DNA of 32,000 nucleotides from Microcystis aeruginosa NIES-843 (GCF_000010625.1 NC_010296.1:5250001-5282000); one strand, 5' to 3'; shown: positions 3,336 through 31,519, numbered from the stretch's first letter. Translations and numbers: made by a program. The notes: generated by a model not told the origin, from the sequence alone.

Positions 3336-4823
3336 ATGATCACCGGCGAATTAAAATCCAAAATAGATAAACTTTGGACAACCTTCTGGAATAACGGCAT
3401 TAGTAACCCGCTTTCGGTAATCGAGCAGATTTCCTATTTACTCTTCATCAAGCGCCTAGATGACCTAGAACTGGCTAAGGAGCGTAGGGCCCAACGATTA
3501 GGCGAAAATCTCGAAAATCCCACCTTTACCCCCAGCCAACAGCATATCCGTTGGTCCCGCTTCAAAAATATCGATGATGCCGAGACAATGCTCCAGATTG
3601 TCCGGGATGAAGCGTTTCCCTTTATCAAAGATATGGGACAGTTTTCTAGGGGTAGCACCTACGCTAAACACATGAAGGACGCGGTGTTTCTCATCGCGTC
3701 TCCGGCGCTGCTGGGGACAGTAATCGAGCAAATTGAAAAAATCCCCATGGAGGATCGGGACACCAAAGGCGACCTTTACGAGTATATGCTCTCGAAACTG
3801 AGTACAGCCGGGACTAACGGACAGTTTCGCACGCCGCGCCATATTATCAAAATGATGGTGGAGTTATTAGCGCCGGGACCCCGGGAAGTTATCTGTGATC
3901 CGGCCTGTGGCACAGGAGGCTTTTTAGTAGCGGCTGCCGAGTATGTGCGGGAGTTAAAGGACAGCGAGGGGGGACGTTTGCTCCATGAACGCGGCAACCT
4001 AGAGCATTTCAATAACCAAATGTTCCACGGTTTTGATTTCGATGCCACGATGTTACGCATCGGCAGCATGAACCTGATGTTACACGGTATCGAGCAGCCG
4101 ATTATCGAGGCCCGGGATTCCCTATCGGAGGATCACGCCGGGGTAGAGGATAGTTTTACCATGATTCTGGCTAATCCACCGTTTAAGGGTTCGGTGGAGA
4201 AGTCCACTATTGCCAAGGATTTATCGAAAATCATCGACACCACTAAAACCGAGTTATTATTCATGGCCCTGTTTTTGCGCTTGCTGAAGACGGGGGGAAA
4301 AGGTGCGGTAATTGTGCCGGATGGGGTGCTATTTGGCTCGTCCAAGGCCCATAAGGACATCCGCACCATCTTGGTAGAAGAACATAAGCTAGAGGGGGTG
4401 ATATCGATGCCGTCGGGGGTGTTTAAACCTTACGCGGGGGTATCTACCGCAATCCTGATTTTTACGAAGCTGGGGGTAAGGGAAAAGGGGACTGACTTCG
4501 TTTGGTTTTATGACATGGTGGCGGATGGTTTCTCTCTCGATGATAAGCGCCAACCGATTGCCGATAATGATATCCCGGACTTGCTGCGCTGTTGGCAGCA
4601 ACGCGACTCCGCTAAGGATACCAACCGCCAAGGGAAGGCGTTTTTTGTGCCTCGCGAGGAGATTCAGGCCAATGCTTATGATCTATCAATTAACCGCTAT
4701 AAGGAGATAGAGTACGAGGAAGTGAGCTATGAGCCGCCGAAGGTGATTTTACAGAAGTTAAGGGCTTTAGAGGCTGATATTCGTCAGGATTTGGACGCAT
4801 TAGAGGAGATGTTAGGAGATTAG
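3336..4823 (+). CDS. hsdM: Type I restriction-modification system methyltransferase subunit (N6-adenine)
   Basis: HsdM_N-like N-terminus, AdoMet motif DPACGTGGF, catalytic motif ILANPPFKG. Followed by hsdS and hsdR on the same strand. Confidence 0.95.
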   Translation: MITGELKSKIDKLWTTFWNNGISNPLSVIEQISYLLFIKRLDDLELAKERRAQRLGENLENPTFTPSQQHIRWSRFKNIDDAETMLQIVRDEAFPFIKDMGQFSRGSTYAKHMKDAVFLIASPALLGTVIEQIEKIPMEDRDTKGDLYEYMLSKLSTAGTNGQFRTPRHIIKMMVELLAPGPREVICDPACGTGGFLVAAAEYVRELKDSEGGRLLHERGNLEHFNNQMFHGFDFDATMLRIGSMNLMLHGIEQPIIEARDSLSEDHAGVEDSFTMILANPPFKGSVEKSTIAKDLSKIIDTTKTELLFMALFLRLLKTGGKGAVIVPDGVLFGSSKAHKDIRTILVEEHKLEGVISMPSGVFKPYAGVSTAILIFTKLGVREKGTDFVWFYDMVADGFSLDDKRQPIADNDIPDLLRCWQQRDSAKDTNRQGKAFFVPREEIQANAYDLSINRYKEIEYEEVSYEPPKVILQKLRALEADIRQDLDALEEMLGD

Positions 4824-4826
4824 GAG

Positions 4827-5150
4827 ATGAAAAATCTACAGCTAGAGGTTATTCTGCGGGAGATAAAAGATTATTTCCATCTGCTCTATCAAAACCAATT
4901 ACAGAAAATCGTCCTTTACGGTTCCCAAGCACGGGAAGATGGACGGGAAGATTCTGATATCGATCTTTTGGTCATTCTTTCTGGTGTGGTGGATCCTTAT
5001 CAGGAAATTGACCGCACGAGTGAATTTATCGCTAGGCTTTGCCTTGATTATAATGTGGTTGTTTCCCGTCATTTTATCTCTGCGGCAAAGTTCCAGAGCG
5101 GAGATAATCCATTTCTTGACAATATACGGCGCGAAGGGGTTACGCTATGA
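4827..5150 (+). CDS. Nucleotidyltransferase-domain protein (MNT-type, antitoxin-like), no intact HEPN partner
   Basis: GSQAREDGREDSDIDLLV matches the minimal nucleotidyltransferase GS...D.D motif. Starts 3 nt after the hsdM stop. Its stop overlaps (ATGA) only a 21-codon ORF (5147-5212). Confidence 0.8.
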   Translation: MKNLQLEVILREIKDYFHLLYQNQLQKIVLYGSQAREDGREDSDIDLLVILSGVVDPYQEIDRTSEFIARLCLDYNVVVSRHFISAAKFQSGDNPFLDNIRREGVTL

Positions 5151-5177
5151 GCGATGATTGCATTGGTAGTTTTGCTC

Positions 5178-5230
5178 AACCGAAAGGATATTTGATTTAT
5201 GCTGAGAAATAAGATTTGTCGGCATTTAGA
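5178..5230 (+). repeat. Junction repeat R1 (AACCGAAAGGATATTTGATTTATG.TGA.AAATAAGATTTGTCGGCATTTAGA)
   Basis: Same unit recurs at 5373-5440, 5578-5621 (internally deleted) and 5937-6014. Its right half resembles the last ~30 nt of hsdM (4787-4815). Confidence 0.85.
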
Positions 5231-5242
5231 TTCCAAGAGAGT

Positions 5243-5269
5243 GGTGGGTTACGCTATCGCTAACCCACC
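5243..5269. repeat. Short palindromic repeat GGTGGGTTA-N9-TAACCCACC
   Basis: 9-bp perfect inverted arms. Related GGGTTA/TAACCC hairpins occur at 5301-5362, 5506-5567 and 30806-30870. Confidence 0.7.
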
Positions 5270-5282
5270 CTACCCATTGAAG

Positions 5283-5370
5283 GGAGAAGAGTTCATAGTA
5301 GGGTGGGTTAGACGGCAACAATCTAGGCGTTAAAGTCAATCTAACAATCCGTCGTAACCCACCGCTTTAG
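5283..5370. mobile_element. 88-bp MITE-like element, copy 1 (GAGAAGAGTTCATAGTAGGGTGGGTTAGACGG...CCGTCGTAACCCACCGCTTTAG)
   Basis: Identical by eye to 5488-5575. Long internal inverted repeat GGTGGGTTAGACGG / CCGTCGTAACCCACC. Confidence 0.8.
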
Positions 5371-5372
5371 TC

Positions 5373-5440
5373 CACCGAAAGGATATTTGATTTATGTTTG
5401 AAAATAAGATTTGTCGGCATTTAGAGGGGATGTGATGACT
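5373..5440 (+). repeat. Junction repeat R2, ending in GATGTGATGACT (first two codons of an MNT2-like gene, then broken by repeats)
   Basis: Matches R1 over ~53 nt. Matches the R3/MNT2 start (5591-5621) up to ATGACT, after which the similarity stops. Confidence 0.85.
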
Positions 5441-5487
5441 AGAATAGAAGCGCCATTCGATCCCCCCCAACCCCCCTTAAAAAGGGG

Positions 5488-5575
5488 GGAGAAGAGTTCA
5501 TAGTAGGGTGGGTTAGACGGCAACAATCTAGGCGTTAAAGTCAATCTAACAATCCGTCGTAACCCACCGCTTTAG
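5488..5575. mobile_element. 88-bp MITE-like element, copy 2
   Basis: Identical by eye to 5283-5370. Preceded by the hairpin CCCCCCTTAAAAAGGGGGG (5471-5489). Confidence 0.8.
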
Positions 5576-5577
5576 TT

Positions 5578-5621
5578 AACCGAAAGGATGTTTGTCGGTA
5601 TTTAGAGAGGATGTGATGACT
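5578..5621 (+). repeat. Junction repeat R3 (short form) leading into the MNT2 start codon
   Basis: AACCGAAAGGATG-TTTGTCGGTATTTAGAGAGGATGTGATGACT. Lacks the central ~26 nt of R1/R2. Confidence 0.8.
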
Positions 5622-5927
5622 GTAACGACAAAGCAACAGGTAATTAGTCTGCTAGAGCAAAATCAAGCCGAATTACGGCGATTGGGAGTTAGTCGCTGTG
5701 GTTTGTTCGGATCTTTTCGGACAGAGCAGACGACAGAGAAGAGCGATGTGGATATTTTGGTGGTGTTTCAACCCGGGATGAAGACATTTAATAATTTTAT
5801 GGATTTATGTTTCTTTTTGGAGGACTTGTTTGATCGGAGTGTGGATCTGGTTACACCTGAGTCGTTGAGTCCTTTTTTTGGACAACGAATTCTCGATGAG
5901 GTGGAATATGTCCCCTGTAGTTCGTGA
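5616..5927 (+). CDS. Nucleotidyltransferase-domain protein (second MNT-type gene, a different subfamily from 4827-5150), no HEPN/DUF86 partner
   Basis: GLFGSFRTEQTTEKSDVDILVVF plus VDLVTPESL. ATG at 5616 with GAGAGG upstream; the ORF-track start at 5592 is TTG. No partner ORF follows before hsdS. Confidence 0.8.
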   Translation: MTVTTKQQVISLLEQNQAELRRLGVSRCGLFGSFRTEQTTEKSDVDILVVFQPGMKTFNNFMDLCFFLEDLFDRSVDLVTPESLSPFFGQRILDEVEYVPCSS

Positions 5928-5936
5928 GTTTTAGTC

Positions 5937-6014
5937 AACCGAAAGGATGTTTGATTTATGTTTGAAAATAAGATTGATCTGGTTTTACGCGCGTTAAAGG
6001 AGATGTTGGGATGA
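5937..6014 (+). repeat. Junction repeat R4 plus an hsdM-3'-end-like relic that overlaps the hsdS start
   Basis: Left part matches R1/R2. The 18-codon ORF 5958-6014 (MFENKIDLVLRALKEMLG*) resembles the HsdM C-terminus (...DLDALEEMLGD*). It ends in an ATGA overlap with the hsdS ATG at 6011. Confidence 0.7.
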
Positions 6015-7198
6015 AGGATTGGCCATCTGTCGCACTAGGCGATATTTTTGAAATTGCTCGTGGTGGTTCGCCAAGACCGATTCAGAATTTTCTGACAGAA
6101 GAACCTGACGGTGTAAACTGGGTAATGATTGGTGATGCTTCGGATAGTTCAAAATACATTACACACACTAAAAAGCGCATTTTGAAGACTGGTGTTAAGA
6201 ATTCACGCATGGTCTATCCGGGTGATTTTTTACTTACGAATTCCATGAGCTTTGGCCACCCTTATATCATGAAAACATCTGGTTGTATTCATGATGGATG
6301 GCTTGTTTTAAGTAATAAAAAAGGTGTTATTGATCAAGATTATTTTTATCATCTACTAGGTTCTGATCTAATATATGCAGAGTTTTCCCGTCTTGCTTCT
6401 GGTTCAACTGTAAAGAACTTAAATATTGAGATAGTTAAAGGGATTAAGGTATCGCTCCCACCCCTCGAAGAACAGCGAAGAATTGCGGCAATTTTAGATA
6501 AAGCAGATGGGGTGCGACGCAAGCGCAAAGAGGCGATTCGGTTGACTGAGGAGTTGTTAAAATCGACTTTCCTAGAGATGTTCGGTGATCCTGTTACTAA
6601 TCCGAAAGGGTGGGAGGTGAAGCGTCTCGGTGAAATATGTACAAATTTTCAAAACGGAATAGGAAAAAATAGTGAACACTATGGTCATGGCTCTAAGGTT
6701 GCAAACATATCTGACTTGTACGAATGGCATCGTTTCATTCCAGAAAAGTATTCACTTCTCGACGTAACTCCAAAAGAGATTGAAAAATATAGTCTCATGA
6801 GAGGAGATCTGCTATTTGTACGTTCTTCAGTAAAGCGTGAAGGGGTTGCTGTATGTTCTGTTTATGATTCTGATGAGATTTGCCTTTTCAGTTCATTTAT
6901 GATCCGAGTCAGGCCGAGGACAGACCTGATTAATCCAGAGTTTTTATCTTTAATGCTTAGAACTCCACCGATGAGAAATAGACTGATTTTAGGTTCTAAC
7001 ACATCTACAATCACTAATATTTCACAGCCAGGATTATCCAAAATTGAGGTCGTTGTTCCTCCTATCAAGACACAAAATCTAATTACAAAAGTTACGAAAA
7101 ATATCGAAGAATCTGTTCGGTGTCATCTTCAGGCGCTTGAACAATCCGAAAATCTCTTTAATTCCCTTTTACAAAGAGCATTTAGGGGGGAACTGTAG
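6011..7198 (+). CDS. hsdS: Type I restriction-modification specificity subunit
   Basis: Two variable target-recognition halves separated by a conserved central helix (LPPLEEQRRIAAILDKADGVRRKRKEAIRLTEELLKSTFLEMFGDP). Conserved C-terminal helix (LFNSLLQRAFRGEL). Confidence 0.9.
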   Translation: MKDWPSVALGDIFEIARGGSPRPIQNFLTEEPDGVNWVMIGDASDSSKYITHTKKRILKTGVKNSRMVYPGDFLLTNSMSFGHPYIMKTSGCIHDGWLVLSNKKGVIDQDYFYHLLGSDLIYAEFSRLASGSTVKNLNIEIVKGIKVSLPPLEEQRRIAAILDKADGVRRKRKEAIRLTEELLKSTFLEMFGDPVTNPKGWEVKRLGEICTNFQNGIGKNSEHYGHGSKVANISDLYEWHRFIPEKYSLLDVTPKEIEKYSLMRGDLLFVRSSVKREGVAVCSVYDSDEICLFSSFMIRVRPRTDLINPEFLSLMLRTPPMRNRLILGSNTSTITNISQPGLSKIEVVVPPIKTQNLITKVTKNIEESVRCHLQALEQSENLFNSLLQRAFRGEL

Positions 7199-7418
7199 CC
7201 ATGGCAGCCGGCGGATTACTGCCATAATCTTGTGGGAAATGCCATTAAAAAAGACCGTTGGACAATTAACCAAGATTCCTATCATCTCACACTGTCACGC
7301 GGGAAAACCCTAGATAAAATAACCGAACTTGCTGTTTTTTTATATAACTGTTAAACAATAATCAGGTAAAATATAGAGATAGCCAAAACTTTGGGGATAA
7401 TAGACTGGGGAGCGCAAT

Positions 7419-10400
7419 ATGGACTCAAACTTCTCCTTCCTGCGAGATCAATTCCCGACAATCTACGATCATGCCAGCCAAGCGGAGGGATTAGTCTTCA
7501 GTAACCCCCGGGCCAGTTGCTTCTATACCCGTTTTGTCCTAGAACAAATGGTCTGCTGGCTCTATGAAAACGACCCCTACCTGCAACCGCCCCGGGACAA
7601 TAGCCTAGGCGCTCTCATCCACGAGCAAACCTTTAAAGATAACCTTAAACCTGGACTTTTCGGCAAAATTCGCACCATCCACAAAGTCGGCAACAACGCC
7701 GCCCACGATACCAGCCCCATCAGTGAACGGGACTCCCTGCACCTGATCGAGGAACTATTTCATCTCACCTACTGGCTGGTGCGCTACTATGGGCAGAATG
7801 GGCGAGAATTGGGCGATATTCGCTTCGATCGCCAGAAGATACCCCCGGCCGCACCCCCCGCTCCCAAACAACTGCAAGACCTGGAAAAACGCCTGTCCCA
7901 AAGCGATGCCCTGCGCCAATTGGCCGAAGCAAAACAGCGCCAAACCGAGGCCGAACTGGCAGCCGCTAGGGCCGAACGGGATGCCCTCCTCGCCCAAAAT
8001 CAAGCGATCGCTGACCGGCACGACTACAACGAAGCCGACACCCGCCGCTACCTGATCGATGTACTACTCCAAGAAGCCGGCTGGGATACCAAAGCCCCCA
8101 ACGCCACAGAGTTCGAGGTGTGGGGGATGCCCATCCAACAAGCGGGGGATACTGGGCGCGGTTTCGTCGATTATGTACTATGGGGCGACGACGGCAAACC
8201 CCTCGCCCTCGTGGAGGCAAAACGCAGCAGCAAAAGCCCCGACAGCGGCCAAAATCAGGCCAAACTCTACGCCGACTGCTTAGAAAAAGACTACAACCAA
8301 CGCCCCGTTATTTTCTACAGCAACGGCTATGAAACCTATCTCTGGGATGATCTCACCTATCCCCCCCGTCCCGTCCTCGGTTTCCTGCGAAAAACCGAGC
8401 TAGAACGGCTAATTTTCCGCCGTTCCCACCGTAAACGCCTCAGCAACACCGCCATTAACGAGGATATTGTCGGCCGTCCCTACCAGAAAGAGGCCATCCG
8501 CCGCATTACCGAAACCTTTGAAGAAAAGTGCGCCCGTAAGTCCCTGTTGGTTATGGCCACGGGAACCGGTAAAACCCGAACTGCGATCGCATTGGTGGAA
8601 CTGCTCAAGAGTGCCAATTGGGTAAACCGAGTCCTGTTTCTGGCCGATCGCAATGCCCTATTAAAGCAAGCCTATCGAGCCTTTCAGCGTCATCTACCCA
8701 GCGTTACCGTCCTGCATCTGACCCGCAGCAAGGACGTGACGGGGGCTAACGTCCTCTTCTCCACCTATCAAACCATGCTCAACGCCATCGATCGCATGGA
8801 TGCAGAGGGGCGAATCTTTGGGGTGGGTTATTTTGACCTAGTGATCGTCGATGAGGCCCATCGCTCCATTTATCAGAAATACGGCGAAATATTCGATTAT
8901 TTCGATGCCCTGCTGGTGGGGCTAACTGCCACGCCGCGCTCGGAAATAGACCGGGACACCTACCGCATTTTCCAGCTACCCCAGGGCGTGCCTACCTTCG
9001 CCTACGAGTTAAATGATGCCGTTAGGGATGGCCACCTCGTCCCCCCCAAGGGCGTTACTGTGCCGTTTAAGTTTCTGCGTACTGGGGTTAAATACAGTGA
9101 GCTAACCCCACAGGAGCGGCTAGACTACGAGGAGAAGTTCCGGGACGAGGAAAGCGGCGAACTACCGCAGGCAATTAACGCAGCTGCCTTTAATGACTGG
9201 TTGTTCAATATCGACACCGTGGATCAAGCATTAGAATTATTGATGCAACGGGGGCTAAAGGTCAACAGTGGCGATCGATTGGGTAAAACGATTATTTTTG
9301 CCCGTAATCACCGACACGCCCAATGTATCTGCGATCGCTTTAACAGTAACTATCCTCACTACAAAGGTCATTTCGCCAAAATTATTGACAGTCACGACAA
9401 TTACGCCCAGAGTCTGCTCGATGACTTCAGCGAAGCCAACAAAGAACCGATTTTGGCCGTCTCGGTGGATATGCTCGATACCGGCGTAGATGTGCCGGAA
9501 GTGGTCAATTTGGTGTTTTTTAAGCCCGTATTCTCCCGGGTGAAGTTCAATCAGATGATCGGGCGCGGGACCCGTCTCTGTCAGGATTTGTTTGGGACTG
9601 GCAACCATAAAACCGAGTTTCTGGTCTTTGACCTCTGCGGGAATTTCGAGTATTTCGAGCAGGATATCGATGAAACAAGCCAGAAAATACCCGAAAGCCT
9701 CACCAGTCGCCTAGTTAAACATCGCCTCGAGTTGGCAACCCGCCTCGCTCCCTCCAAGCCAAGCGCGACACCTAGGGCAAGAGAGCAGTCCTCTACTTAC
9801 AAAGTCGAGCGGGCCGGCGACCTATACACGAGTTTGCTCGATGCACTCCATCAACACATCGCCACCATGCCCCGGGATAATTTCCTCGTGCGTCGTCGCT
9901 TGCCGCAGGTGGAGACCTTTAGTCAGCGTCAGCGTTGGAACAACCTGAGTCAGGAGGACGCGGCCACCATTGCCGACTGCTTGGCCGGTTTACCCAATAG
10001 TCTGCCCAATGAGGATCCCCTGGCCAAGGAATTCGACCTTCTCTGCGTGAAACTGCAATTAGCCATTCTCAAGGCCGACCGTAGTTATGAGCGATTGCGG
10101 GACAAAGTGCGGGATATTCTCGGTCAACTGGAGACTAAGCCCGATATCCCGATGATTAAGGGACAATTGGCCTTTATTCGCGAGGTGCAGGACGAAAGCT
10201 GGTGGACCGGCGCAACGCCGTCAATGGTGGAGGGGATTCGGGTGCGTGTCCGGGATCTGGTCAAGTTTATTGATCGCCAAAAGCAGCAGATCGTGATCAC
10301 CGATTTTGTCGATGAGATGGGGGAGGTGCAGATTGTCGATATTCCCACCCATCAGACCGGTTTTAGTCGCGAACAGTATCGCCGGAAAGTGGAGGCCTAT

Positions 10401-10865
10401 ATCCGTCAGCATCAGGATCACCTTGCGATCGCTAAGTTGCGGCGCAATCTCCCCCTAACGGAGACGGATTTATCTGCCCTAGAGGAGATGCTATTTTCGG
10501 CCGCAGAAATTGAGAGCCGTCAGCGTTTTGAGGAGGTTTTTGGCCAGACAAAAAGCCTCAAGCTCCTGATCCTGGAAATCGTCGGACTTGATCCCGCAGG
10601 GATCCGCGTAGCGGCACGCCAGGCGGCTAAACAAGCTTTTGCCCGTTATTTGCAGGGGACAAACTTCTCGGCCAATCAAATCCGTTTTATCGAAAATATC
10701 ATCGATATGCTCGCTAAAAACGGAGTTATCAATCCGGGGGCGCTCTACGAGCCTCCTTTTACTGATAACCATCCCGAAGGGCTAGATGGGATGTTTAATG
10801 ATGGGGAAGCTGATCGGATCGTCTCGATTTTGCGATCGTTTAATGAGTCCGTTGATGCGGTCTAA
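7419..10865 (+). CDS. hsdR: Type I restriction enzyme R subunit with an N-terminal DUF4145-like domain and a coiled-coil extension
   Basis: PD-(D/E)XK nuclease motif (GFVDYVLW...LVEAKRS). Helicase motifs I MATGTGKT, II VIVDEAHRS, III GLTATP. EcoEI-R-like C-terminal region. 1148 aa. Confidence 0.95.
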   Translation: MDSNFSFLRDQFPTIYDHASQAEGLVFSNPRASCFYTRFVLEQMVCWLYENDPYLQPPRDNSLGALIHEQTFKDNLKPGLFGKIRTIHKVGNNAAHDTSPISERDSLHLIEELFHLTYWLVRYYGQNGRELGDIRFDRQKIPPAAPPAPKQLQDLEKRLSQSDALRQLAEAKQRQTEAELAAARAERDALLAQNQAIADRHDYNEADTRRYLIDVLLQEAGWDTKAPNATEFEVWGMPIQQAGDTGRGFVDYVLWGDDGKPLALVEAKRSSKSPDSGQNQAKLYADCLEKDYNQRPVIFYSNGYETYLWDDLTYPPRPVLGFLRKTELERLIFRRSHRKRLSNTAINEDIVGRPYQKEAIRRITETFEEKCARKSLLVMATGTGKTRTAIALVELLKSANWVNRVLFLADRNALLKQAYRAFQRHLPSVTVLHLTRSKDVTGANVLFSTYQTMLNAIDRMDAEGRIFGVGYFDLVIVDEAHRSIYQKYGEIFDYFDALLVGLTATPRSEIDRDTYRIFQLPQGVPTFAYELNDAVRDGHLVPPKGVTVPFKFLRTGVKYSELTPQERLDYEEKFRDEESGELPQAINAAAFNDWLFNIDTVDQALELLMQRGLKVNSGDRLGKTIIFARNHRHAQCICDRFNSNYPHYKGHFAKIIDSHDNYAQSLLDDFSEANKEPILAVSVDMLDTGVDVPEVVNLVFFKPVFSRVKFNQMIGRGTRLCQDLFGTGNHKTEFLVFDLCGNFEYFEQDIDETSQKIPESLTSRLVKHRLELATRLAPSKPSATPRAREQSSTYKVERAGDLYTSLLDALHQHIATMPRDNFLVRRRLPQVETFSQRQRWNNLSQEDAATIADCLAGLPNSLPNEDPLAKEFDLLCVKLQLAILKADRSYERLRDKVRDILGQLETKPDIPMIKGQLAFIREVQDESWWTGATPSMVEGIRVRVRDLVKFIDRQKQQIVITDFVDEMGEVQIVDIPTHQTGFSREQYRRKVEAYIRQHQDHLAIAKLRRNLPLTETDLSALEEMLFSAAEIESRQRFEEVFGQTKSLKLLILEIVGLDPAGIRVAARQAAKQAFARYLQGTNFSANQIRFIENIIDMLAKNGVINPGALYEPPFTDNHPEGLDGMFNDGEADRIVSILRSFNESVDAV

Positions 10866-10890
10866 GAGTAAGCGCGGATGAAGAAATAAA
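10839..10890 (+). repeat. 52-bp direct repeat, copy A (covers the last 8 codons and stop of hsdR plus 25 nt)
   Basis: TTTAATGAGTCCGTTGATGCGGTCTAAGAGTAAGCGCGGATGAAGAAATAAA. Matches 16680-16731 at 50 of 52 positions. Confidence 0.95.
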
Positions 10891-10893
10891 AGC

Positions 10894-11772
10894 ATGAAAA
10901 CTGACACGATTTTTTATCAACTCTTTCAATCATTCCCCTCTATCTTCTTTGAATTAATTCAACTCCCTATCAGCGAAGCGAATAACTACCGCTTTGACTC
11001 AGTGGAAGTCAAACAACTTTCCTTTCGTCTTGATGGAGTCTTTCTGCCTCAAAATAATCACCCCCAGACTCCTATCTACTTCTGTGAGGTACAATTTCAA
11101 GAAGATGAGGCTTTTTATCAGCGCTTTTTCACCGAAATATTCTTATATCTCAGTAAAACTGACTTAACCAATGATTGGCGGGGTGTGATTGTCTATCCTA
11201 ACCCTCAAGTAGAAACCGATAAAGTTCAACGCTATCGGGAACTTCTCAACTCCGAGCGAGTGAGACGGATTTATCTGAATGAATTAGAAAACATTCCTCA
11301 AACTTCGATTGGTTTAGCTACAGTCCAATTAATCACCCTATCTAAAGCAAAAGCGATTGATAGCACCCGAAAATTAATCCAAAGAGTGCGGCAAGAATTA
11401 ACCCCCGACCAAAAACCGCAAGAACTCTTACAATTAATAGAGACGATTCTCGTTTATAAGTTACCGCTTCTCAATCGTCGGGAGATAGAAACTATGTTTA
11501 GTTTAGATGAATTAAAACAGACTCAGTATTTTCAAGATGTGCGCGAAGAAGCGCGTCAGGAAGGTCGTCAGGAAGGCATTGAGCAAGGCATTGAGCAAGG
11601 CATTGAGCAAGGCATTGAGCAAGGCATTGAGCAAGGTATTGAGCAAGGCAGACTAAACAAAGCACTAGAGGCGGTCCCTCGTTTGTTAGCCTTAGGGTTA
11701 AGTGTTGAGCAAGTCGCATCCGCGTTAGAGTTAGAGGTTGAACAGGTTAGAGCTATACAAAACGGGACATAA
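10894..11772 (+). CDS. Rpn (YhgA-like)/DUF2887-type PD-(D/E)XK recombination-promoting nuclease/putative transposase family protein, tandem copy 1 (292 aa, 6 GIEQ repeats)
   Basis: N-terminus MKTDTIFYQLFQ, a putative nuclease core (RLDGVF...IYFCEVQFQ) and a C-terminal helix-rich tail after a QEGR/GIEQ linker. Family assignment is by pattern recognition only. Starts 28 nt after the hsdR stop. Confidence 0.75.
   Translation: MKTDTIFYQLFQSFPSIFFELIQLPISEANNYRFDSVEVKQLSFRLDGVFLPQNNHPQTPIYFCEVQFQEDEAFYQRFFTEIFLYLSKTDLTNDWRGVIVYPNPQVETDKVQRYRELLNSERVRRIYLNELENIPQTSIGLATVQLITLSKAKAIDSTRKLIQRVRQELTPDQKPQELLQLIETILVYKLPLLNRREIETMFSLDELKQTQYFQDVREEARQEGRQEGIEQGIEQGIEQGIEQGIEQGIEQGRLNKALEAVPRLLALGLSVEQVASALELEVEQVRAIQNGT
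11575..11646 (+). repeat. In-frame 12-bp tandem repeat GGCATTGAGCAA x6 (encodes GIEQ)
   Basis: Six contiguous units; the last one reads GGTATTGAGCAA. Confidence 0.95.
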
Positions 11773-11835
11773 AAAAATGTGATCGCCTTGTGAAATAAAA
11801 GCATGAAAACTGACACGATTTTTTATCAACTCTTT

Positions 11836-13053
11836 AGACCTCTTGCATAATTTTTTTATGGTATAATATAAGGTTTTGCTTTTTTCTCAATTCTTAGATT
11901 GAAGTGGAAAAAAGAATAAAATGTGATCTTAGGTCAGGAAATCATCTATAATTTTGCTATGTTTATTAGCAAAATTATGGATTATCAAAACTTATCAGAT
12001 GAACAATTCAAACGCCGTTTCGGTGTGTATAAACAAACCTATAGAAAGATGGTAGAATCAGTAAAAAGTGTTGAAGCCGACTCTAATTCACCATCTAAAA
12101 GGGGACCGAAACCTAAACTATCTATAGAAGAACAAGTTTTAGTAACGTTAGAATATTGGCGAGAATATAGAACATATTTTCACATTGGTACAAGCTGGGA
12201 ACTATCAGAATCAACTATATGTCGGATTGTAAATAAGACGGAAAAAATGCTTTTACAATCGGGAAACTTCCGTTTAAAAGGAAAAAAAGCTTTACTCAAT
12301 CAAGCAGAGATACCGGTCATAACGGTAATGGATGTAACGGAAACTCCCATTGAACGCCCCCAAAAGAAACAGAAAGATTTTTTTTCGGGTAAAAGAGGTT
12401 ATCATACTTTAAAATCCCAATTAGTAGCTGATCAAAATACAAAGGAAATTATCTGTGTCTTTTGTGGGAAAGGTAGAGGTCATGATTTTAGTTTATTTAA
12501 AAAAAGTCGAGTTCGTTTTCATCCTTTAACTACCAGCATAGAAGACAGTGGTTATCAGGGAATAGCTGCATACCATAGTAATAGTTATACACCGAAAAAG
12601 AAATCGAAAAATAGAAAATTAACAGAGTTAGAAAAAGAGTATAACAAGGCTTTAGCCAAAGAAAGGATTATCATTGAACATATAAATAGGAAACTCAAAA
12701 TCTTTAAAATCTTATCCTGTAAATATCGGAATCGTCGTCGAAGATATAGTTTAAGAGTTAACTTGTTGGCGGCTATTTATAACTGTGAGTTAGGGATAGG
12801 TATAGCAGCTTCTTAAAAGTTGCCTAAAGATTAATCAAGTCAAGGAGAATTTATTCTCAATTTTTATAATTGAGATAGTTTGTGCCGCTTAAATAAAGAG
12901 GTTTTGATAACCAAATTAAAGCAGCTCTAAAGAGTTTTGAGTTAAAAGTTAAACTTCAAGTTTTCATTCAGGACAAATGTACTGATTAACTAATTTTTTG
13001 GGGAAAATTAGTTAACCCATCATTATAACATATAATTAATTTGCAAGAGTTCT
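11836..13053 (+). mobile_element. Insertion sequence (~1218 bp), IS5/Harbinger-like DDE family
   Basis: Imperfect terminal inverted repeats AGACCTCTTGCATAAT... / ...ATTTGCAAGAGTTCT. Flanked by duplicated TTT (11833-11835 and 13054-13056). Single transposase ORF. AT-rich. Confidence 0.85.
11977..12816 (+). CDS. IS5/Harbinger-like DDE transposase (HTH plus DDE_Tnp_4-like domain)
   Basis: Candidate DDE residues in MDVTETPIERP, IEDSGYQGI and RIIIEHINRKLKIFKIL. N-terminal HTH region (RGPKPKLSIEEQVLVTLEYWREYRTY). ATG at 11977 is preferred over the GTG at 11923. Confidence 0.85.
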   Translation: MDYQNLSDEQFKRRFGVYKQTYRKMVESVKSVEADSNSPSKRGPKPKLSIEEQVLVTLEYWREYRTYFHIGTSWELSESTICRIVNKTEKMLLQSGNFRLKGKKALLNQAEIPVITVMDVTETPIERPQKKQKDFFSGKRGYHTLKSQLVADQNTKEIICVFCGKGRGHDFSLFKKSRVRFHPLTTSIEDSGYQGIAAYHSNSYTPKKKSKNRKLTELEKEYNKALAKERIIIEHINRKLKIFKILSCKYRNRRRRYSLRVNLLAAIYNCELGIGIAAS

Positions 13054-13848
13054 TTTCAATCTTTCCCCTCTATCTTCTTTGAATTAATTCAACTCCCTAT
13101 CAGCGAAGCGAATAACTACCGCTTTGACTCAGTGGAAGTCAAACAACTTTCCTTTCGTCTTGATGGAGTCTTTCTGCCTCAAAATAATCACCCCCAGACT
13201 CCTATCTACTTCTGTGAGGTACAATTTCAAGAAGATGAGGCTTTTTATCAGCGCTTTTTCACCGAAATATTCTTATATCTCAGTAAAACTGACTTAACCA
13301 ATGATTGGCGGGGTGTGATTGTCTATCCTAACCCTCAAGTAGAAACCGATAAAGTTCAACGCTATCGGGAACTTCTCAACTCCGAGCGAGTGAGACGGAT
13401 TTATCTGAATGAATTAGAAAACATTCCTCAAACTTCGATTGGTTTAGCTACAGTCCAATTAATCACCCTATCTAAAGCAAAAGCGATTGATAGCACCCGA
13501 AAATTAATCCAAAGAGTGCGGCAAGAATTAACCCCCGACCAAAAACCGCAAGAACTCTTACAATTAATAGAGACGATTCTCGTTTATAAGTTACCGCTTC
13601 TCAATCGTCGGGAGATAGAAACTATGTTTAGTTTAGATGAATTAAAACAGACTCAGTATTTTCAAGATGTGTGCGAAGAAGCGCGTCAGGAAGGCAGACT
13701 AAACAAAGCACTAGAGGCGGTCCCTCGTTTGTTAGCCTTAGGGTTAAGTGTTGAGCAAGTCGCATCCGCGTTAGAGTTAGAGGTTGAACAGGTTAGAGCT
13801 ATACAAAACGGGACATAAAAAAATGCGATCGCCTTGTGAAATAAAAGC

Positions 13849-14667
13849 ATGAAAACTGACACGATTTTTTATCAACTCTTTCAATCTTTCCCCTCTATCT
13901 TCTTTGAATTAATTCAACTCCCTATCAGCGAAGCGAATAACTACCGCTTTGACTCAGTGGAAGTCAAACAACTTTCCTTTCGTCTTGATGGAGTCTTTCT
14001 GCCTCAAAATAATCACCCCCAGACTCCTATCTACTTCTGTGAGGTACAATTTCAAGAAGATGAGGCTTTTTATCAGCGCTTTTTCACCGAAATATTCTTA
14101 TATCTCAGTAAAACTGACTTAACCAATGATTGGCGGGGTGTGATTGTCTATCCTAACCCTCAAGTAGAAACCGATAAAGTTCAACGCTATCGGGAACTTC
14201 TCAACTCCGAGCGAGTGAGACGGATTTATCTGAATGAATTAGAAAACATTCCTCAAACTTCGATTGGTTTAGCTACAGTCCAATTAATCACCCTATCTAA
14301 AGCAAAAGCGATTGATAGCACCCGAAAATTAATCCAAAGAGTGCGGCAAGAATTAACCCCCGACCAAAAACCGCAAGAACTCTTACAATTAATAGAGACG
14401 ATTCTCGTTTATAAGTTACCGCTTCTCAATCGTCGGGAGATAGAAACTATGTTTAGTTTAGATGAATTAAAACAAACTCAGTATTTTCAAGATGTGCGCG
14501 AGGAAGCGCGTCAGGAAGGTCGCGAGGAAGGTCGTCAGGAAGGCAGACTAAACAAAGCACTAGAGGCTGTCCCTCGTTTGTTAGCCTTAGGGTTAAGTGT
14601 TGAGCAAGTCGCATCCGCGTTAGAGTTAGAGGTTGAACAGGTTAGAGCTATACAAAACGGGACATAA
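13849..14667 (+). CDS. Rpn/DUF2887-type nuclease, tandem copy 3 (272 aa, 0 GIEQ, one extra EGRE/EGRQ unit)
   Basis: Near-identical to copy 1 outside the linker, which reads QEGREEGRQEGRLNK. Confidence 0.75.
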   Translation: MKTDTIFYQLFQSFPSIFFELIQLPISEANNYRFDSVEVKQLSFRLDGVFLPQNNHPQTPIYFCEVQFQEDEAFYQRFFTEIFLYLSKTDLTNDWRGVIVYPNPQVETDKVQRYRELLNSERVRRIYLNELENIPQTSIGLATVQLITLSKAKAIDSTRKLIQRVRQELTPDQKPQELLQLIETILVYKLPLLNRREIETMFSLDELKQTQYFQDVREEARQEGREEGRQEGRLNKALEAVPRLLALGLSVEQVASALELEVEQVRAIQNGT

Positions 14668-14697
14668 AAAAATGCGATCGCCTTGTGAAATAAAAGC

Positions 14698-15564
14698 ATG
14701 AAAACTGACACGATTTTTTATCAACTCTTTCAATCTTTCCCCTCTATCTTCTTTGAATTAATTCAACTCCCTATCAGCGAAGCGAATAACTACCGCTTTG
14801 ACTCAGTGGAAGTCAAACAACTTTCCTTTCGTCTTGATGGAGTCTTTCTGCCTCAAAATAATCACCCCCAGACTCCTATCTACTTCTGTGAGGTACAATT
14901 TCAAGAAGATGAGGCTTTTTATCAGCGCTTTTTCACCGAAATATTCTTATATCTCAGTAAAACTGACTTAACCAATGATTGGCGGGGTGTGATTGTCTAT
15001 CCTAACCCTCAAGTAGAAACCGATAAAGTTCAACGCTATCGGGAACTTCTCAACTCCGAGCGAGTGAGACGGATTTATCTGAATGAATTAGAAAACATTC
15101 CTCAAACTTCGATTGGTTTAGCTACAGTCCAATTAATCACCCTATCTAAAGCAAAAGCGATTGATAGCACCCGAAAATTAATCCAAAGAGTGCGGCAAGA
15201 ATTAACCCCCGACCAAAAACCGCAAGAACTCTTACAATTAATAGAGACGATTCTCGTTTATAAGTTACCGCTTCTCAATCGTCGGGAGATAGAAACTATG
15301 TTTAGTTTAGATGAATTAAAACAAACTCAGTATTTTCAAGATGTGCGCGAAGAAGCGCGTCAGGAAGGTCGCGAGGAAGGCATTGAGCAAGGCATTGAGC
15401 AAGGCATTGAGCAAGGCATTGAGCAAGGTATTGAGCAAGGCAGACTAAACAAAGCATTAGAGGCGGTCCCTCGTTTGTTAGCCTTAGGGTTAAGTGTTGA
15501 GCAAGTCGCATCCGCGTTAGAGTTAGAGGTTAAACAGGTTAGAGCTATACAAAACGGGACATAA
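14698..15564 (+). CDS. Rpn/DUF2887-type nuclease, tandem copy 4 (288 aa, 5 GIEQ)
   Basis: Near-identical to copy 1. The 30-nt spacer upstream contains a HIP1 site (GCGATCGC). Confidence 0.75.
   Translation: MKTDTIFYQLFQSFPSIFFELIQLPISEANNYRFDSVEVKQLSFRLDGVFLPQNNHPQTPIYFCEVQFQEDEAFYQRFFTEIFLYLSKTDLTNDWRGVIVYPNPQVETDKVQRYRELLNSERVRRIYLNELENIPQTSIGLATVQLITLSKAKAIDSTRKLIQRVRQELTPDQKPQELLQLIETILVYKLPLLNRREIETMFSLDELKQTQYFQDVREEARQEGREEGIEQGIEQGIEQGIEQGIEQGRLNKALEAVPRLLALGLSVEQVASALELEVKQVRAIQNGT
15379..15438 (+). repeat. In-frame 12-bp tandem repeat GGCATTGAGCAA x5
   Basis: Five contiguous units inside copy 4. Confidence 0.95.
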
Positions 15565-15594
15565 AAAAATGTGATCGCCTTGTAAAATAAAAGC

Positions 15595-16437
15595 ATGAAA
15601 ACTGACACGATTTTTTATCAACTCTTTCAATCATTCCCCTCTATCTTCTTTGAATTAATTCAACTCCCTATCAGCGAAGCGAATAACTACCGCTTTGACT
15701 CAGTGGAAGTCAAACAACTTTCTTTTCGTCTTGATGGAGTCTTTCTGCCTCAAAATAATCACCCCCAGACTCCTATCTACTTCTGTGAGGTACAATTTCA
15801 AGAAGATGAGGCTTTTTATCAGCGCTTTTTCACTGAAATATTCTTATATCTCAGTAAAACTGACTTAACCAATGATTGGCGGGGTGTGATTGTCTATCCT
15901 AACCCTCAAGTAGAAACCGATAAAGTTCAACGCTATCGGGAACTTCTCAACTCCGAGCGAGTGAGACGGATTTATCTGAATGAATTAGAAAACATTCCTC
16001 AAACTTCGATTGGTTTAGCTACAGTCCAATTAATCACCCTATCTAAAGCAAAAGCGATTGATAGCACCCGAAAATTAATCCAAAGAGTGCGGCAAGAATT
16101 AACCCCCGACCAAAAACCGCAAGAACTCTTACAATTAATAGAGACGATTCTCGTTTATAAGTTACCGCTTCTCAATCGTCGGGAGATAGAAACTATGTTT
16201 AGTTTAGATGAATTAAAACAAACTCAGTATTTTCAAGATGTGCGCGAAGAAGCGCGTCAGGAAGGTCGCGAGGAAGGCATTGAGCAAGGCATTGAGCAAG
16301 GCATTGAGCAAGGCAGACTAAACAAAGCACTAGAGGCTGTCCCTCGTTTGTTAGCCTTAGGGTTAAGCGTTGAGCAAGTCGCATCTGCGTTAGAGTTAGA
16401 GGTTAAACAGGTTAGAGCTATACAAAACGGGACATAA
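15595..16437 (+). CDS. Rpn/DUF2887-type nuclease, tandem copy 5 (280 aa, 3 GIEQ)
   Basis: Near-identical to copy 1. Last unit of the array, followed by a ~240-nt unique tail. Confidence 0.75.
   Translation: MKTDTIFYQLFQSFPSIFFELIQLPISEANNYRFDSVEVKQLSFRLDGVFLPQNNHPQTPIYFCEVQFQEDEAFYQRFFTEIFLYLSKTDLTNDWRGVIVYPNPQVETDKVQRYRELLNSERVRRIYLNELENIPQTSIGLATVQLITLSKAKAIDSTRKLIQRVRQELTPDQKPQELLQLIETILVYKLPLLNRREIETMFSLDELKQTQYFQDVREEARQEGREEGIEQGIEQGIEQGRLNKALEAVPRLLALGLSVEQVASALELEVKQVRAIQNGT
16276..16311 (+). repeat. In-frame 12-bp tandem repeat GGCATTGAGCAA x3
   Basis: Three contiguous units inside copy 5. Confidence 0.95.
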
Positions 16438-16679
16438 TCTCCTTATGTCCTCATGTCTAGGATGTCCTGTTATACTAAATCCTGTTTGATTTGATTGATT
16501 CAAGCTAATGTTATGGCTAATACTGGGAAAAGTTAAGATTTATACCCCATAGATGAGCGATTAAAAGCAATAATCTCCGCCATTCTACCCCCCCGAATTT
16601 GTCAAGTATTCTCCGTTTTTTATTGATGAATACGGAAAAAGCCCATCAGGGAGAGACTGGAAGGGTTAGAAAGTTGAGA

Positions 16680-30805: not shown

Positions 30806-30870
30806 GTAGGATGGGTTAGCGGTAGCGTAACCCATGCGGGCGTTGGGTTTCATGCTTCAACCCAACCTAC
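30806..30870. mobile_element. 65-bp palindromic MITE-like element (GTAGGATGGGTT...AACCCAACCTAC)
   Basis: 12-bp terminal inverted repeats (11 of 12 match). Two internal GGGTT/AACCC hairpins. Related to the 5243-5269 and 5298-5362 repeats. Confidence 0.7.
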
Positions 30871-30939
30871 TGATCACTGATTACTGATAACTGATCACTG
30901 ATTACTGATGACTGATTACTGATGACTGATTACTGATGA
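30870..30939 (+). repeat. Heptamer tandem repeat CTGATNA x10
   Basis: Ten contiguous units. Only position 6 varies (C,T,A,C,T,G,T,G,T,G). Same unit and orientation as 22958-23020. Lies just 3' of adk. Confidence 0.95.
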
Positions 30940-30952
30940 TCTGAGAGAAACT

Positions 30953-31519
30953 TTAAACAGGAGTCACAACTGCTGTTAGAGCGGCAGTAACCGCGTCCAT
31001 CGGTTGATTACCGTCGATATGGTTAAGAGTGCCTTTTTGACCGTAATAATCTAAAACGGGGGCAGTTTGGTCGATATAAACCTGTAGGCGACGGGAGATC
31101 GTTTCTTTAGTATCATCTTGACGACCCCGTTGCATGAGACGCTCAATTAAGACCGTATCTGGTACAGCCAAATTGACCACAAATGTGTAACTATCGGCCA
31201 ATTCTTCCAGTAATGCGTCTAAAAAGCTCGCCTGTGCCACCGTGCGGGGAAACCCATCAAGAATCCAACCCTTAGCACTGTCAGGCTGTTTTAAACGTTC
31301 CTGAATTAAACCTAATAACAACTCATCGGGGACTAATTCGCCCTTTTCCACATAAGCTTGTGCTTGTTGACCAAGTTCTGTCTTCTCTGTAATTGCTTGA
31401 CGTAAAATTTCACCGGTAGAAATATGGGGAATCGTCAGAGATTCCGCTAATTTTGCCGCTTGAGTACCTTTTCCCGATCCGGGCGGTCCCAAAAATATCA
31501 CACCGATCCGTTTGCTCAT
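30953..31519 (-). CDS. adk: Adenylate kinase
   Basis: P-loop GPPGSGKGTQ, the short-lid type. Located downstream of secY as in the spc-type ribosomal cluster. Confidence 0.95.
   Translation of the reverse strand: MSKRIGVIFLGPPGSGKGTQAAKLAESLTIPHISTGEILRQAITEKTELGQQAQAYVEKGELVPDELLLGLIQERLKQPDSAKGWILDGFPRTVAQASFLDALLEELADSYTFVVNLAVPDTVLIERLMQRGRQDDTKETISRRLQVYIDQTAPVLDYYGQKGTLNHIDGNQPMDAVTAALTAVVTPV

Follow-up and report, generated by a model that had tools for sequence, protein, structure and literature searches.

The hsdM and hsdS genes of the type I restriction–modification (R-M) operon of Microcystis aeruginosa NIES-843, which lies in the 32 kb stretch of DNA analyzed here (the window, from whose first letter all window positions are counted), are separated by 1.19 kb holding two nucleotidyltransferase (MNT) genes and a set of repeats. 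Our analysis indicates that this junction is probably a variable slot for toxin–antitoxin (TA) genes at a former hsdM/hsdS overlap, that a duplicated hsdM tail forms the leader of hsdS there, and that the window carries a reduced allele of the slot. Open reading frame (ORF) and Pfam searches bore out the end of hsdM (4823), the start of hsdS (6011), and the two different MNT genes in between, all as given in a preliminary description of this DNA. The type I domain make-up is complete, with the HsdM methylase and HsdM_N domains, a two-domain HsdS, and an HsdR with motor and nuclease regions (Pfam). The operon and its junction comprise the following features, with lengths in nucleotides (nt) or amino acids (aa):

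3336–4823, plus strand: hsdM, 495 aa; Pfam N6_Mtase PF02384 (2.4e-65) and HsdM_N PF12161 (5e-19), PADLOC MTase_I (3e-189).
4827–5150, plus strand: MNT1, 107 aa, intact, MntA-like antitoxin type; Pfam Polbeta and NTP_transf_2, PADLOC PDC-S09 over the full length (7e-40).
5147–5212, plus strand: stub of 21 codons, ATGA-coupled to MNT1; its first 11 nt (5147–5157, ATGAGCGATGA) are the start of the HEPN gene of comparison locus L031.
5171–5235, plus strand: unit U1, left half intact; the right half ends at ...CATTTAGA and is fused to a small hairpin.
5240–5273, no strand: the small hairpin (GGTGGGTTACGCTATCGCTAACCCACC), from an inverted-repeat search; also found where the L045 leader begins.
5282–5371, plus strand: partial copy of hairpin element H, a direct repeat of 5487–5577.
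5366–5437, plus strand: unit U2; its mini-ORF, MFENKICRHLEGM and a stop, ends in TGATG and overlaps an ATGACT stub (5435–5455).
5456–5577, plus strand: complete leader element, made up of a C6/G6 palindrome and, after it, hairpin H with a 14-bp stem.
5571–5618, plus strand: unit U3, with a 22-nt internal deletion, immediately 5' of MNT2.
5616–5927, plus strand: MNT2, 103 aa, intact and different from MNT1; Pfam NTP_transf_2 (2e-12), PADLOC PDC-S09 over the full length (6e-35).
5908–5934, plus strand: HepT/DUF86 remnant of 8 codons (ATGTCCCCTGTAGTTCGTGAGTTTTAG, MSPVVREF and a stop), overlapping the end of MNT2.
5930–6013, plus strand: unit U4, the hsdS leader; a Shine–Dalgarno (SD)-like left half with an ATG, then an hsdM-tail relic of ~40–55 nt.
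6011–7198, plus strand: hsdS, 395 aa, two recognition domains; Pfam Methylase_S PF01420 in two stretches.
7419–10865, plus strand: hsdR, 1148 aa, intact; Pfam ResIII, Helicase_C, EcoEI_R_C, HSDR_N, and DUF4145.

Could the repeated units of the junction be relics of the hsdM 3' end? The motif AACCGAAAGGATRTTTG occurs at 5178, 5373, 5578, and 5937 (four matches compared with 0.02 expected), which are the positions given previously, and no other copy was found in the window. Each unit was aligned locally with the last 100 nt of hsdM, with 1212 further 100-nt windows from this sequence as the background. U4, with a score of 29, and U2, with a score of 25, exceeded all 1212 background windows, and the segment that the relics resemble comprises the last ~45 nt of hsdM (4779–4823). 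Aligned globally as a whole, the unit scored 40 against the hsdM tail, a value reached by none of 2000 shuffles (16.8 ± 5.2). When the hsdM tail was compared by blastn with the comparison loci that we fetched (designated by L-numbers), it matched the hsdS-proximal leader in many alleles, with 79–85% identity over 32–43 nt.

The reading frames point the same way. The 18-codon mini-ORF of U4 (5958–6014), MFENKIDLVLRALKEMLG and a stop, ends in ...LKEMLG-stop, and its stop overlaps the hsdS start codon as ATGA, just as had been described. Its peptide scored highest at the extreme C-terminus in 98 of the 111 HsdM orthologues, most of which end in ...LE.MLG-stop, and the leader peptides had their best ungapped match at that same place in 98–107 of the 111. 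Two leader variants, FSNEIRQVLDVLEGILG (L071) and FRNEIRQGLDVLRGML (L015), each followed by a stop, come closest to the HsdM consensus ...EIRxDLDxLExMLG-stop. As judged from these alignments, an hsdM-tail relic is demonstrable for the right 40–55 nt of the unit only.

Alleles with zero, one, or two cassettes, which had been predicted for this junction, were found at the same place in other Microcystis. Where HsdM is at least 96% identical to that of the window, the junction takes at least 11 structural forms with 0, 1, or 2 MNT genes, including these:

L031: HigA-like gene (130 aa), MNT1, intact HEPN gene (128 aa), unit, MNT2, HepT remnant, hairpin, unit.
L030, L039, and L020: HigA-like gene, MNT1, MNT2, intact HepT gene (115 aa), hairpin, unit, stub, hairpin, unit.
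L032 and L033: a junction like that of the window, with both MNT genes.
L034–L038: MNT1 only.
L023, L024, and L041: MNT2 only, after a truncated HigA-like gene.
L015 and L028: a junction without an MNT gene.

The intact MNT–HEPN pairs that had also been predicted are therefore present, as MNT1–HEPN in the first of these forms and as MNT2–HepT in the second. The HEPN protein of L031 matches PF05168 (3.2e-15) and the HepT protein of L030 matches PF01934 (4.4e-28) in Pfam, and the HepT that follows MNT2 carries an RDRLIH (Rx4H) motif. On the evidence of these alleles, the orphan state of both MNT genes in the window would be secondary. The HigA-like 130-aa protein (L030 4612–5004) matches residues 1–120 of the PADLOC model PD-Lambda-2_B, which has 402 aa (5.5e-35). 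As it has no Pfam or NCBIfam match and its matches to HigA in the PDB are weak (E ~0.01), a firm HigA assignment was dropped and only the name "HigA-like" was kept.

The joints between these alleles can be read to the nucleotide. The first 16 nt of MNT1 (ATGAAAAATCTACAGC, encoding MKNLQ; window 4827–4842) are also the start of the HigA-like gene (the two copies in L030 are at 4612–4627 and 5001–5016), and because both genes open with the same 16 nt, either one can directly follow the hsdM stop. The shared start may stem from convergence or from a duplication during insertion. The hsdM–MNT1 joint of the window equals the L030 sequence less everything between the two copies of this 16-nt direct repeat. 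Similarly, the HepT deletion joint in the window lies at a GTTTT repeat, L024 retains a HepT remnant of ~22 codons, and L028 equals L024 less the segment between two unit copies. No intact HEPN toxin gene is present in the window junction, as the preliminary description had stated; of the toxin genes, HEPN is represented by 11 nt and HepT by 8 codons. The stub that had been reported as the only sequence following MNT1 does occupy 5147–5212, and its opening 11 nt are those of the HEPN gene, after which it continues as the fused sequence of a stemless hairpin element and a unit. The statement that MNT2 is followed by nothing does not hold, as the HepT remnant overlaps its end.

The deletion ends thus fall at short direct repeats (16-nt and 5-nt) and not at site-specific joints. 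From the breakpoints that these comparisons show, unit-by-unit, hairpin-by-hairpin, and microhomology events would have produced the allele series. A dedicated cassette system of the integron, shufflon, or invertase kind, with a site-specific recombinase that uses the unit or the hairpin as its target, would account for small promoterless genes arrayed with a repeated element before each, for the hairpin-forming repeats, and for the presence/absence polymorphism bounded by repeats. However, Pfam detected no tyrosine or serine recombinase among the window ORFs scanned, none was found in the inspected related loci, and the breakpoints vary by allele, with microhomologies of 5–16 nt and no fixed core site, while the orientation of genes and units is never inverted. 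An integron attC reading of the hairpin was rejected, as the GTTRRRY/RYYYAAC order is wrong (the R''/R' core sites do not follow the attC order when examined by eye) and there is no integrase. We therefore regard a dedicated system as very unlikely.

Are the two MNT genes that remain in the window merely debris? The catalytic GS...DxD motif can be read in both translations (YGSQAREDGREDSDIDL in MNT1 and FGSFRTEQTTEKSDVDI in MNT2), and PF01909 and PF18765 match both proteins. All 10 MNT1 and all 11 MNT2 nucleotide alleles are open. Among the MNT1 codon states, 10 are synonymous and 2 non-synonymous (ratio ~0.06), and 9 of the 10 alleles have no HEPN gene in cis; for MNT2, the figures are 14 and 9 (ratio ~0.18), with most of the non-synonymous states in four C-terminal codons rebuilt by deletions. 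These codon counts indicate that the MNT genes are apparently under purifying selection and not decaying. Furthermore, the full-length PDC-S09 matches imply that MNT genes standing alone, as these do, are already on record as defence candidates. The NCBIfam MntA equivalog gave 31.8 and 44.3 bits for the two MNT proteins, under its cutoff of 60 bits, and the scores of the HepT equivalog were likewise below cutoff.

The form from which such a junction could have arisen is found in more distant cyanobacteria, in which the junction and the identity of HsdM to that of the window are as follows:

L084, HsdM 78%: canonical 4-nt hsdM/hsdS overlap, ...GGGATGA.
L085 (Thalassoporum PCC 7367), HsdM 76%: canonical 4-nt overlap, ...GCGATGA.
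L072, HsdM 86%: a 61-aa gene and a DUF2283-like gene; its own hsdM tail is duplicated over 36 nt.
L081 and L082, HsdM 86%: Uma2 gene; a weak relic, DFDKLEEILG and a stop, overlapping a GTG start (equalled by 17 of 872 and 5 of 506 background windows).
L077, HsdM 84%: Uma2 gene 3' of hsdM, on a contig without hsdS.
L074 (Leptolyngbya PCC 6406), HsdM 81%: four small genes, including an MNT2-like MNT gene; no relic detected.
L079 and L080 (Prochlorothrix), HsdM 78%: DUF29 gene; no relic detected.

In the compact form, the hsdS SD sequence (GGAG/GAGG) lies within the last hsdM codons; in the window, the ribosome-binding site (RBS) of hsdS, AAGGAG, is located inside the U4 relic. The tail copy in L072 is identical to its source at 31 of 36 positions and overlaps the hsdS start, and its score of 47 was reached by 0 of 872 background windows. 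The resident HsdM tails of these loci are often altered (...MLYM-stop, ...LLKP-stop, and ...MLGD-stop in Microcystis). The C-termini of 120 orthologues show that most HsdM proteins have 492–494 aa and end in ...MLG-stop or ...LLG-stop, and the window HsdM, ending in ...EEMLGD-stop, extends one residue beyond most of them (...MLG-stop). Taken together, the sequences show that the hsdM/hsdS overlap is a recurrent insertion point in this HsdM family and that duplication of the tail arose more than once.

As a separate observation, the other cyanobacteria have unrelated small genes at the junction (Uma2, DUF29, a 61–101 aa protein with a DUF2283 protein, and an MNT2-like MNT in L072, L074, L077, L079, and L081), and a GGGTTACGCTAACGC...CCCAACCTAC hairpin upstream of hsdS in L074 is like the small hairpin at 5240–5273 of the window.

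How could an insertion at such an overlap leave both genes working? The ancestral form would have had hsdM and hsdS overlapping (...MLG-stop, ATGA), and an insertion at the overlap would have placed an hsdM tail on both sides, one completing hsdM and the other being kept as the hsdS leader (U4). Because the hsdS RBS lies inside the last hsdM codons, both genes would survive only with a tail on both sides; an insertion would otherwise break one of them, and we infer that this is why the survivors carry a duplicated tail. The duplication may have come about by single-crossover integration of a circular molecule of tail plus cassette or by homology-facilitated illegitimate recombination. The inserted block would have comprised the HigA-like gene, MNT1–HEPN, and MNT2–HepT. 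Leader and hairpin element would later have been copied within the junction, once to a place before MNT2 and once to a place before the short stub, and units, hairpins, and shorter repeats could then have served as substrates of ordinary recombination or slippage, leading to the population-wide allele series. The window allele would have lost the HigA-like gene across the 16-nt repeat, HEPN down to its first 11 nt, and HepT down to 8 codons at the GTTTT joint. Loss of the toxin first is tolerable for a TA module, and that is the order which this allele would have followed.

Alternatively, the MNT1 block, the MNT2 block, and the stub gene could each have arrived separately with their own hsdM 3' end, making the four units independent relics. 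The complete units do end in a stop that overlaps the next start (TGATG at MNT2 and the stub, ATGA at hsdS), two sequence types, (a) and (b), can be told apart among their right halves, and L072 has a tail duplication of its own, all of which would fit repeated insertion. On the other hand, the Microcystis units share about the same left boundary and a left half that does not resemble hsdM, which independent illegitimate joins would not reproduce; type (a) resembles type (b) with internal deletions; and unit and hairpin have been amplified jointly as ~205-nt blocks, with a spacing of 205 nt in the window and up to 5 units in L033. The window repeat amounts to 108 nt (5282–5389 versus 5487–5594) at 97% identity. 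We consider four separate insertions quite unlikely, and the shared boundary and left half favor a single relic that was amplified later. The earlier proposal of repeated insertion or duplication followed by HEPN loss is thus supported by the alleles and remnants, with one amplified relic in place of four independent ones. The stub at 5435–5455, which had been taken for a truncated MNT start, has only ATGACT in common with MNT2 and reads on into the next element.

If the units were members of a genome-wide repeat family that landed here and had nothing to do with hsdM, copies should be found elsewhere. We scanned sequence collections for exact matches. The unit 22-mer CCGAAAGGATRTTTGATTTATG was found in 15 stretches among 185,579 species (one genome each), 11 of them in Microcystis, with 1–3 per genome (2 copies in the complete FBCC-A1114 chromosome), and all 11 lie directly upstream of an hsdS. 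The remaining four, non-cyanobacterial, are RBS-plus-ATG regions of unrelated genes. Among 241 million metagenome records, 30 contigs carry the 28-nt core of the hairpin, with 37 occurrences in all; in most cases the next element is the unit or a point variant, one occurrence is at a contig end, and two adjoin a HepT remnant beside another copy, so that 0 of the 37 were free of the unit or outside an hsdS leader region.

A repeat family would agree with the inverted repeats of the element and with short pieces elsewhere, namely the C6/G6 palindrome, seen also in flanks of L033 and L023, and a 29-nt hairpin-like match at 30806–30834 of the window. However, the window holds no further full copy of the 108–122 nt element, and the similarity of the unit to the hsdM tail is significant. 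The inverted repeats of the element are internal (the 14-bp stem) and not terminal, and as its boundaries merge with the unit, no target-site duplication could be delimited. Within these exact-match scans, such a family is largely refuted as the source of the units, which prove specific to the R-M junction, and the similarity to hsdM stands. The repeats that had been called paired miniature inverted-repeat transposable elements (MITEs) are real, at 108–122 nt, and the MITE label was discarded because the core was never found away from the unit or the hsdS leader; within exact-match limits, the repeat would be a junction-specific hairpin element.

Could the leader also have a role in the movement of hsdS? 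In six Microcystis genomes, the palindrome–hairpin–unit leader precedes an orphan hsdS that is located 3' of a gene for a NUDIX hydrolase and lacks an hsdM in its vicinity (L017, L018, L021, L022, L025, and L026; for example, L026 5007–6925). The window and the orphan locus share, by blastn, the leader, the central conserved region of hsdS (6455–6616, 94–99%), and the hsdS 3' end together with 80–230 nt of downstream flank (window 7137–7278). The 50-odd hsdS copies carry at least 16 types of first target recognition domain (TRD1) and at least 16 of second (TRD2), in many combinations; three recognition-domain types are common to operon and orphan loci at 96–99% nucleotide identity, with breakpoints in the central region. 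The exchange was observed between strains, and no inverted hsdS copies and no recombinase were found. In a third context (L045 36–3719, also in L043), a hairpin–unit leader including the hsdM-tail relic stands before an hsdS of a different family (374 aa, with other conserved regions), directly 3' of a different, 728-aa hsdR-like helicase gene. Since the leader is common to the operon, orphan, and L045 loci, these arrangements suggest that it serves as the upstream homology arm for hsdS replacement, as the hsdM tail would in a compact operon.

It is a tentative possibility, compatible with the TA-gene slot proposed here, that unit and hairpin are kept for a function, as a portable translation-initiation or coupling region or as a 5' regulatory RNA. 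Every hsdS-proximal copy has AAGGAG ~8 nt from the ATG, the left half consists of SD-like sequence and an ATG and finds its non-Microcystis matches only in true RBS and start regions, and the same leader precedes hsdS in three genomic contexts, one with an hsdS of another family. However, many leader copies, at the operon and the orphan locus alike, have an interrupted mini-ORF (TTATAAGGAG, or MF and a stop), for which reason translational coupling through it cannot be essential, and the idea of a conserved coupling ORF was abandoned; an A/G polymorphism in leader copies gives a second overlapping ORF. No Rfam family was matched by the leader and hairpin at E ≤ 1, and a known RNA family was rejected on that ground. 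Furthermore, the predicted folding of 5456–6020 is only mildly more stable than that of shuffles (z = −2.2), the unit copies are too alike for covariation tests, and consensus scans of 4823–6011 found no promoter or terminator, the counts being equal to those of shuffles.

A broader proposal joins these strands, and we hold it with more reserve, as an unlikely one. The leader would then be a portable module of homology and translation initiation that works without a recombinase, allowing both capture and loss of cassettes at the overlap and movement of hsdS to and from a storage locus beside the NUDIX gene. The orphan MNT genes would be working stand-alone genes, for defence in the manner of PDC-S09 or for immunity against HEPN toxins encoded elsewhere. 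If true, such a system would create diversity in the specificity of a type I R-M locus and also in its accessory genes.

Several observations weigh against the reading of the junction as a TA-gene slot with a duplicated hsdM tail. The scores of U3 (16) and of U1 (14), whose right end is lost, fall inside the background, so that neither is demonstrably hsdM-derived on its own. The left ~45 nt of the unit show no significant similarity to the hsdM tail (6 compared with a shuffle mean of 9.7), and a collinear alignment of the whole ~85-nt unit with the last ~93 nt of hsdM (PPKVIL... on QPKGCLI...) was rejected on this score. The claim that the units match the hsdM end accordingly holds for the right half, and individually for U4 and U2, but not for U1 and U3 taken alone or for the left half. 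No relic was found beside hsdS in the insert-bearing L074, L079, and L080, and tail duplication is thus not universal. The broken mini-ORFs and the lack of consensus promoters and terminators described above belong here as well, and the polarity of the events, deletion or insertion, was inferred from parsimony and remnants and not from a rooted phylogeny.

The surroundings of the operon also vary. It occurs in two chromosomal neighborhoods, downstream of efp-accB (the window and L034–L037) or downstream of glmS and a 100-aa/DUF2283 gene pair (L030–L033, L038, and L039). The HsdM and HsdS proteins are identical in M. viridis NIES-102 (AP019314.1) and several metagenome contigs. The NIES-102 allele (L001/L008/L040) is otherwise identical to that of the window; it has an IS630-type element (DDE_3 and helix–turn–helix ORFs, ~1.25 kb) within the first junction hairpin element, and its hsdR is broken into several ORFs, whereas that of the window is intact. 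Directly 3' of the window hsdR, at 10884–16440, lie five tandem DUF2887 genes (PD-(D/E)XK/Rpn-like) spaced by ~825–900 nt, which are what the preliminary description had called a long duplication at the hsdR end. The copies are 99–100% identical over 300 nt and differ in the number of 12-nt GGCATTGAGCAA (GIEQ) repeats, and an IS5-type DDE transposase gene (11923–12816) interrupts the array between copies 1 and 2. Further along, a 744-aa ORF (28081–30315) combines an HSDR_N-like nuclease region with N6_N4_Mtase/D12-type methyltransferase motifs, and from these motifs it is possibly a fused restriction-methylase and hence a second R-M element of the window. At 30900–30960, upstream of an adenylate kinase gene, heptamer-like repeats (CTGATTA/CTGATCA/CTGATGA) lie beside a GGATGGGTTAGC...GTAACCCAT hairpin.

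These results give a picture, at the level of sequence, of how a type I R-M operon can take up and shed accessory defence genes and stay functional: the overlap in which the hsdM end and the hsdS RBS lie together would have to be duplicated, and the duplicate would then become a substrate for recombination. The Microcystis alleles would amount to a natural time course of TA decay in which the antitoxin-type gene outlasts the toxin. The two-locus arrangement of hsdS may widen the range of restriction specificities in this bloom-forming cyanobacterium, which is under heavy phage pressure. The linkage of HEPN/MNT genes to R-M operons, embedded accessory genes, and the shuffling of hsdS recognition domains were already known. 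Three things appear to be new: an hsdM-tail duplicate that became the hsdS leader and was amplified afterwards, a decay series in which the MNT genes persist, and a leader shared with an orphan hsdS. Current understanding is thereby refined and not overturned.

How does the junction compare with known systems? In type VII MntA–HepT modules, the MNT antitoxin reportedly AMPylates and so neutralizes the HEPN RNase toxin (Yao et al. 2020; Songailiene et al. 2020). The modules at this junction resemble MNT–HEPN modules in domain families, gene order, and start/stop overlaps, and intact pairs occur here in other strains; they differ in that the window has neither toxin gene while its antitoxin-type genes are kept under apparent purifying selection, and in the sub-cutoff MntA and HepT equivalog scores. 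Links to R-M systems are on record for at least 16 HEPN clades, and HEPN genes of PF05168 cluster with R-M operons (Anantharaman et al. 2013, PMC3710099). The full-length matches of MNT1 and MNT2 also relate them to PADLOC PDC-S09, a single-gene nucleotidyltransferase candidate; here, however, the stand-alone state can be traced to loss of the partner toxin at the same site.

Accessory genes embedded in hsd loci include the prrC anticodon nuclease of E. coli (prr/hsd) and the rlo genes of Campylobacter jejuni. The junction is like these in having small defence- or TA-type genes within an hsd operon, with Uma2, DUF29, or a DUF2283 pair in the same slot of the cyanobacterial orthologues, but it differs in the exact site at the hsdM/hsdS overlap, the use of a second hsdM tail as the hsdS leader, and the stepwise decay series. 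Shuffling of hsdS is known from Streptococcus pneumoniae SpnD39III and Mycoplasma pulmonis, and movement of recognition domains from Helicobacter pylori. As in those systems, Microcystis can have more than one hsdS per genome, with shared flanks and a shared central region at which domain types reassort; in contrast to them, inverted copies and a linked recombinase are absent, the second hsdS is distant, beside a NUDIX gene, and the exchange is between strains. Finally, integron cassettes and the minimal mobile elements of Neisseria are small genes at a fixed site. The likeness lies in the gain and loss of small genes at a single place flanked by repeats or conserved sequence, whereas at the Microcystis junction there is no integrase and no attC, the repeat comes from the 3' end of the neighboring gene, and the joints are microhomologies.

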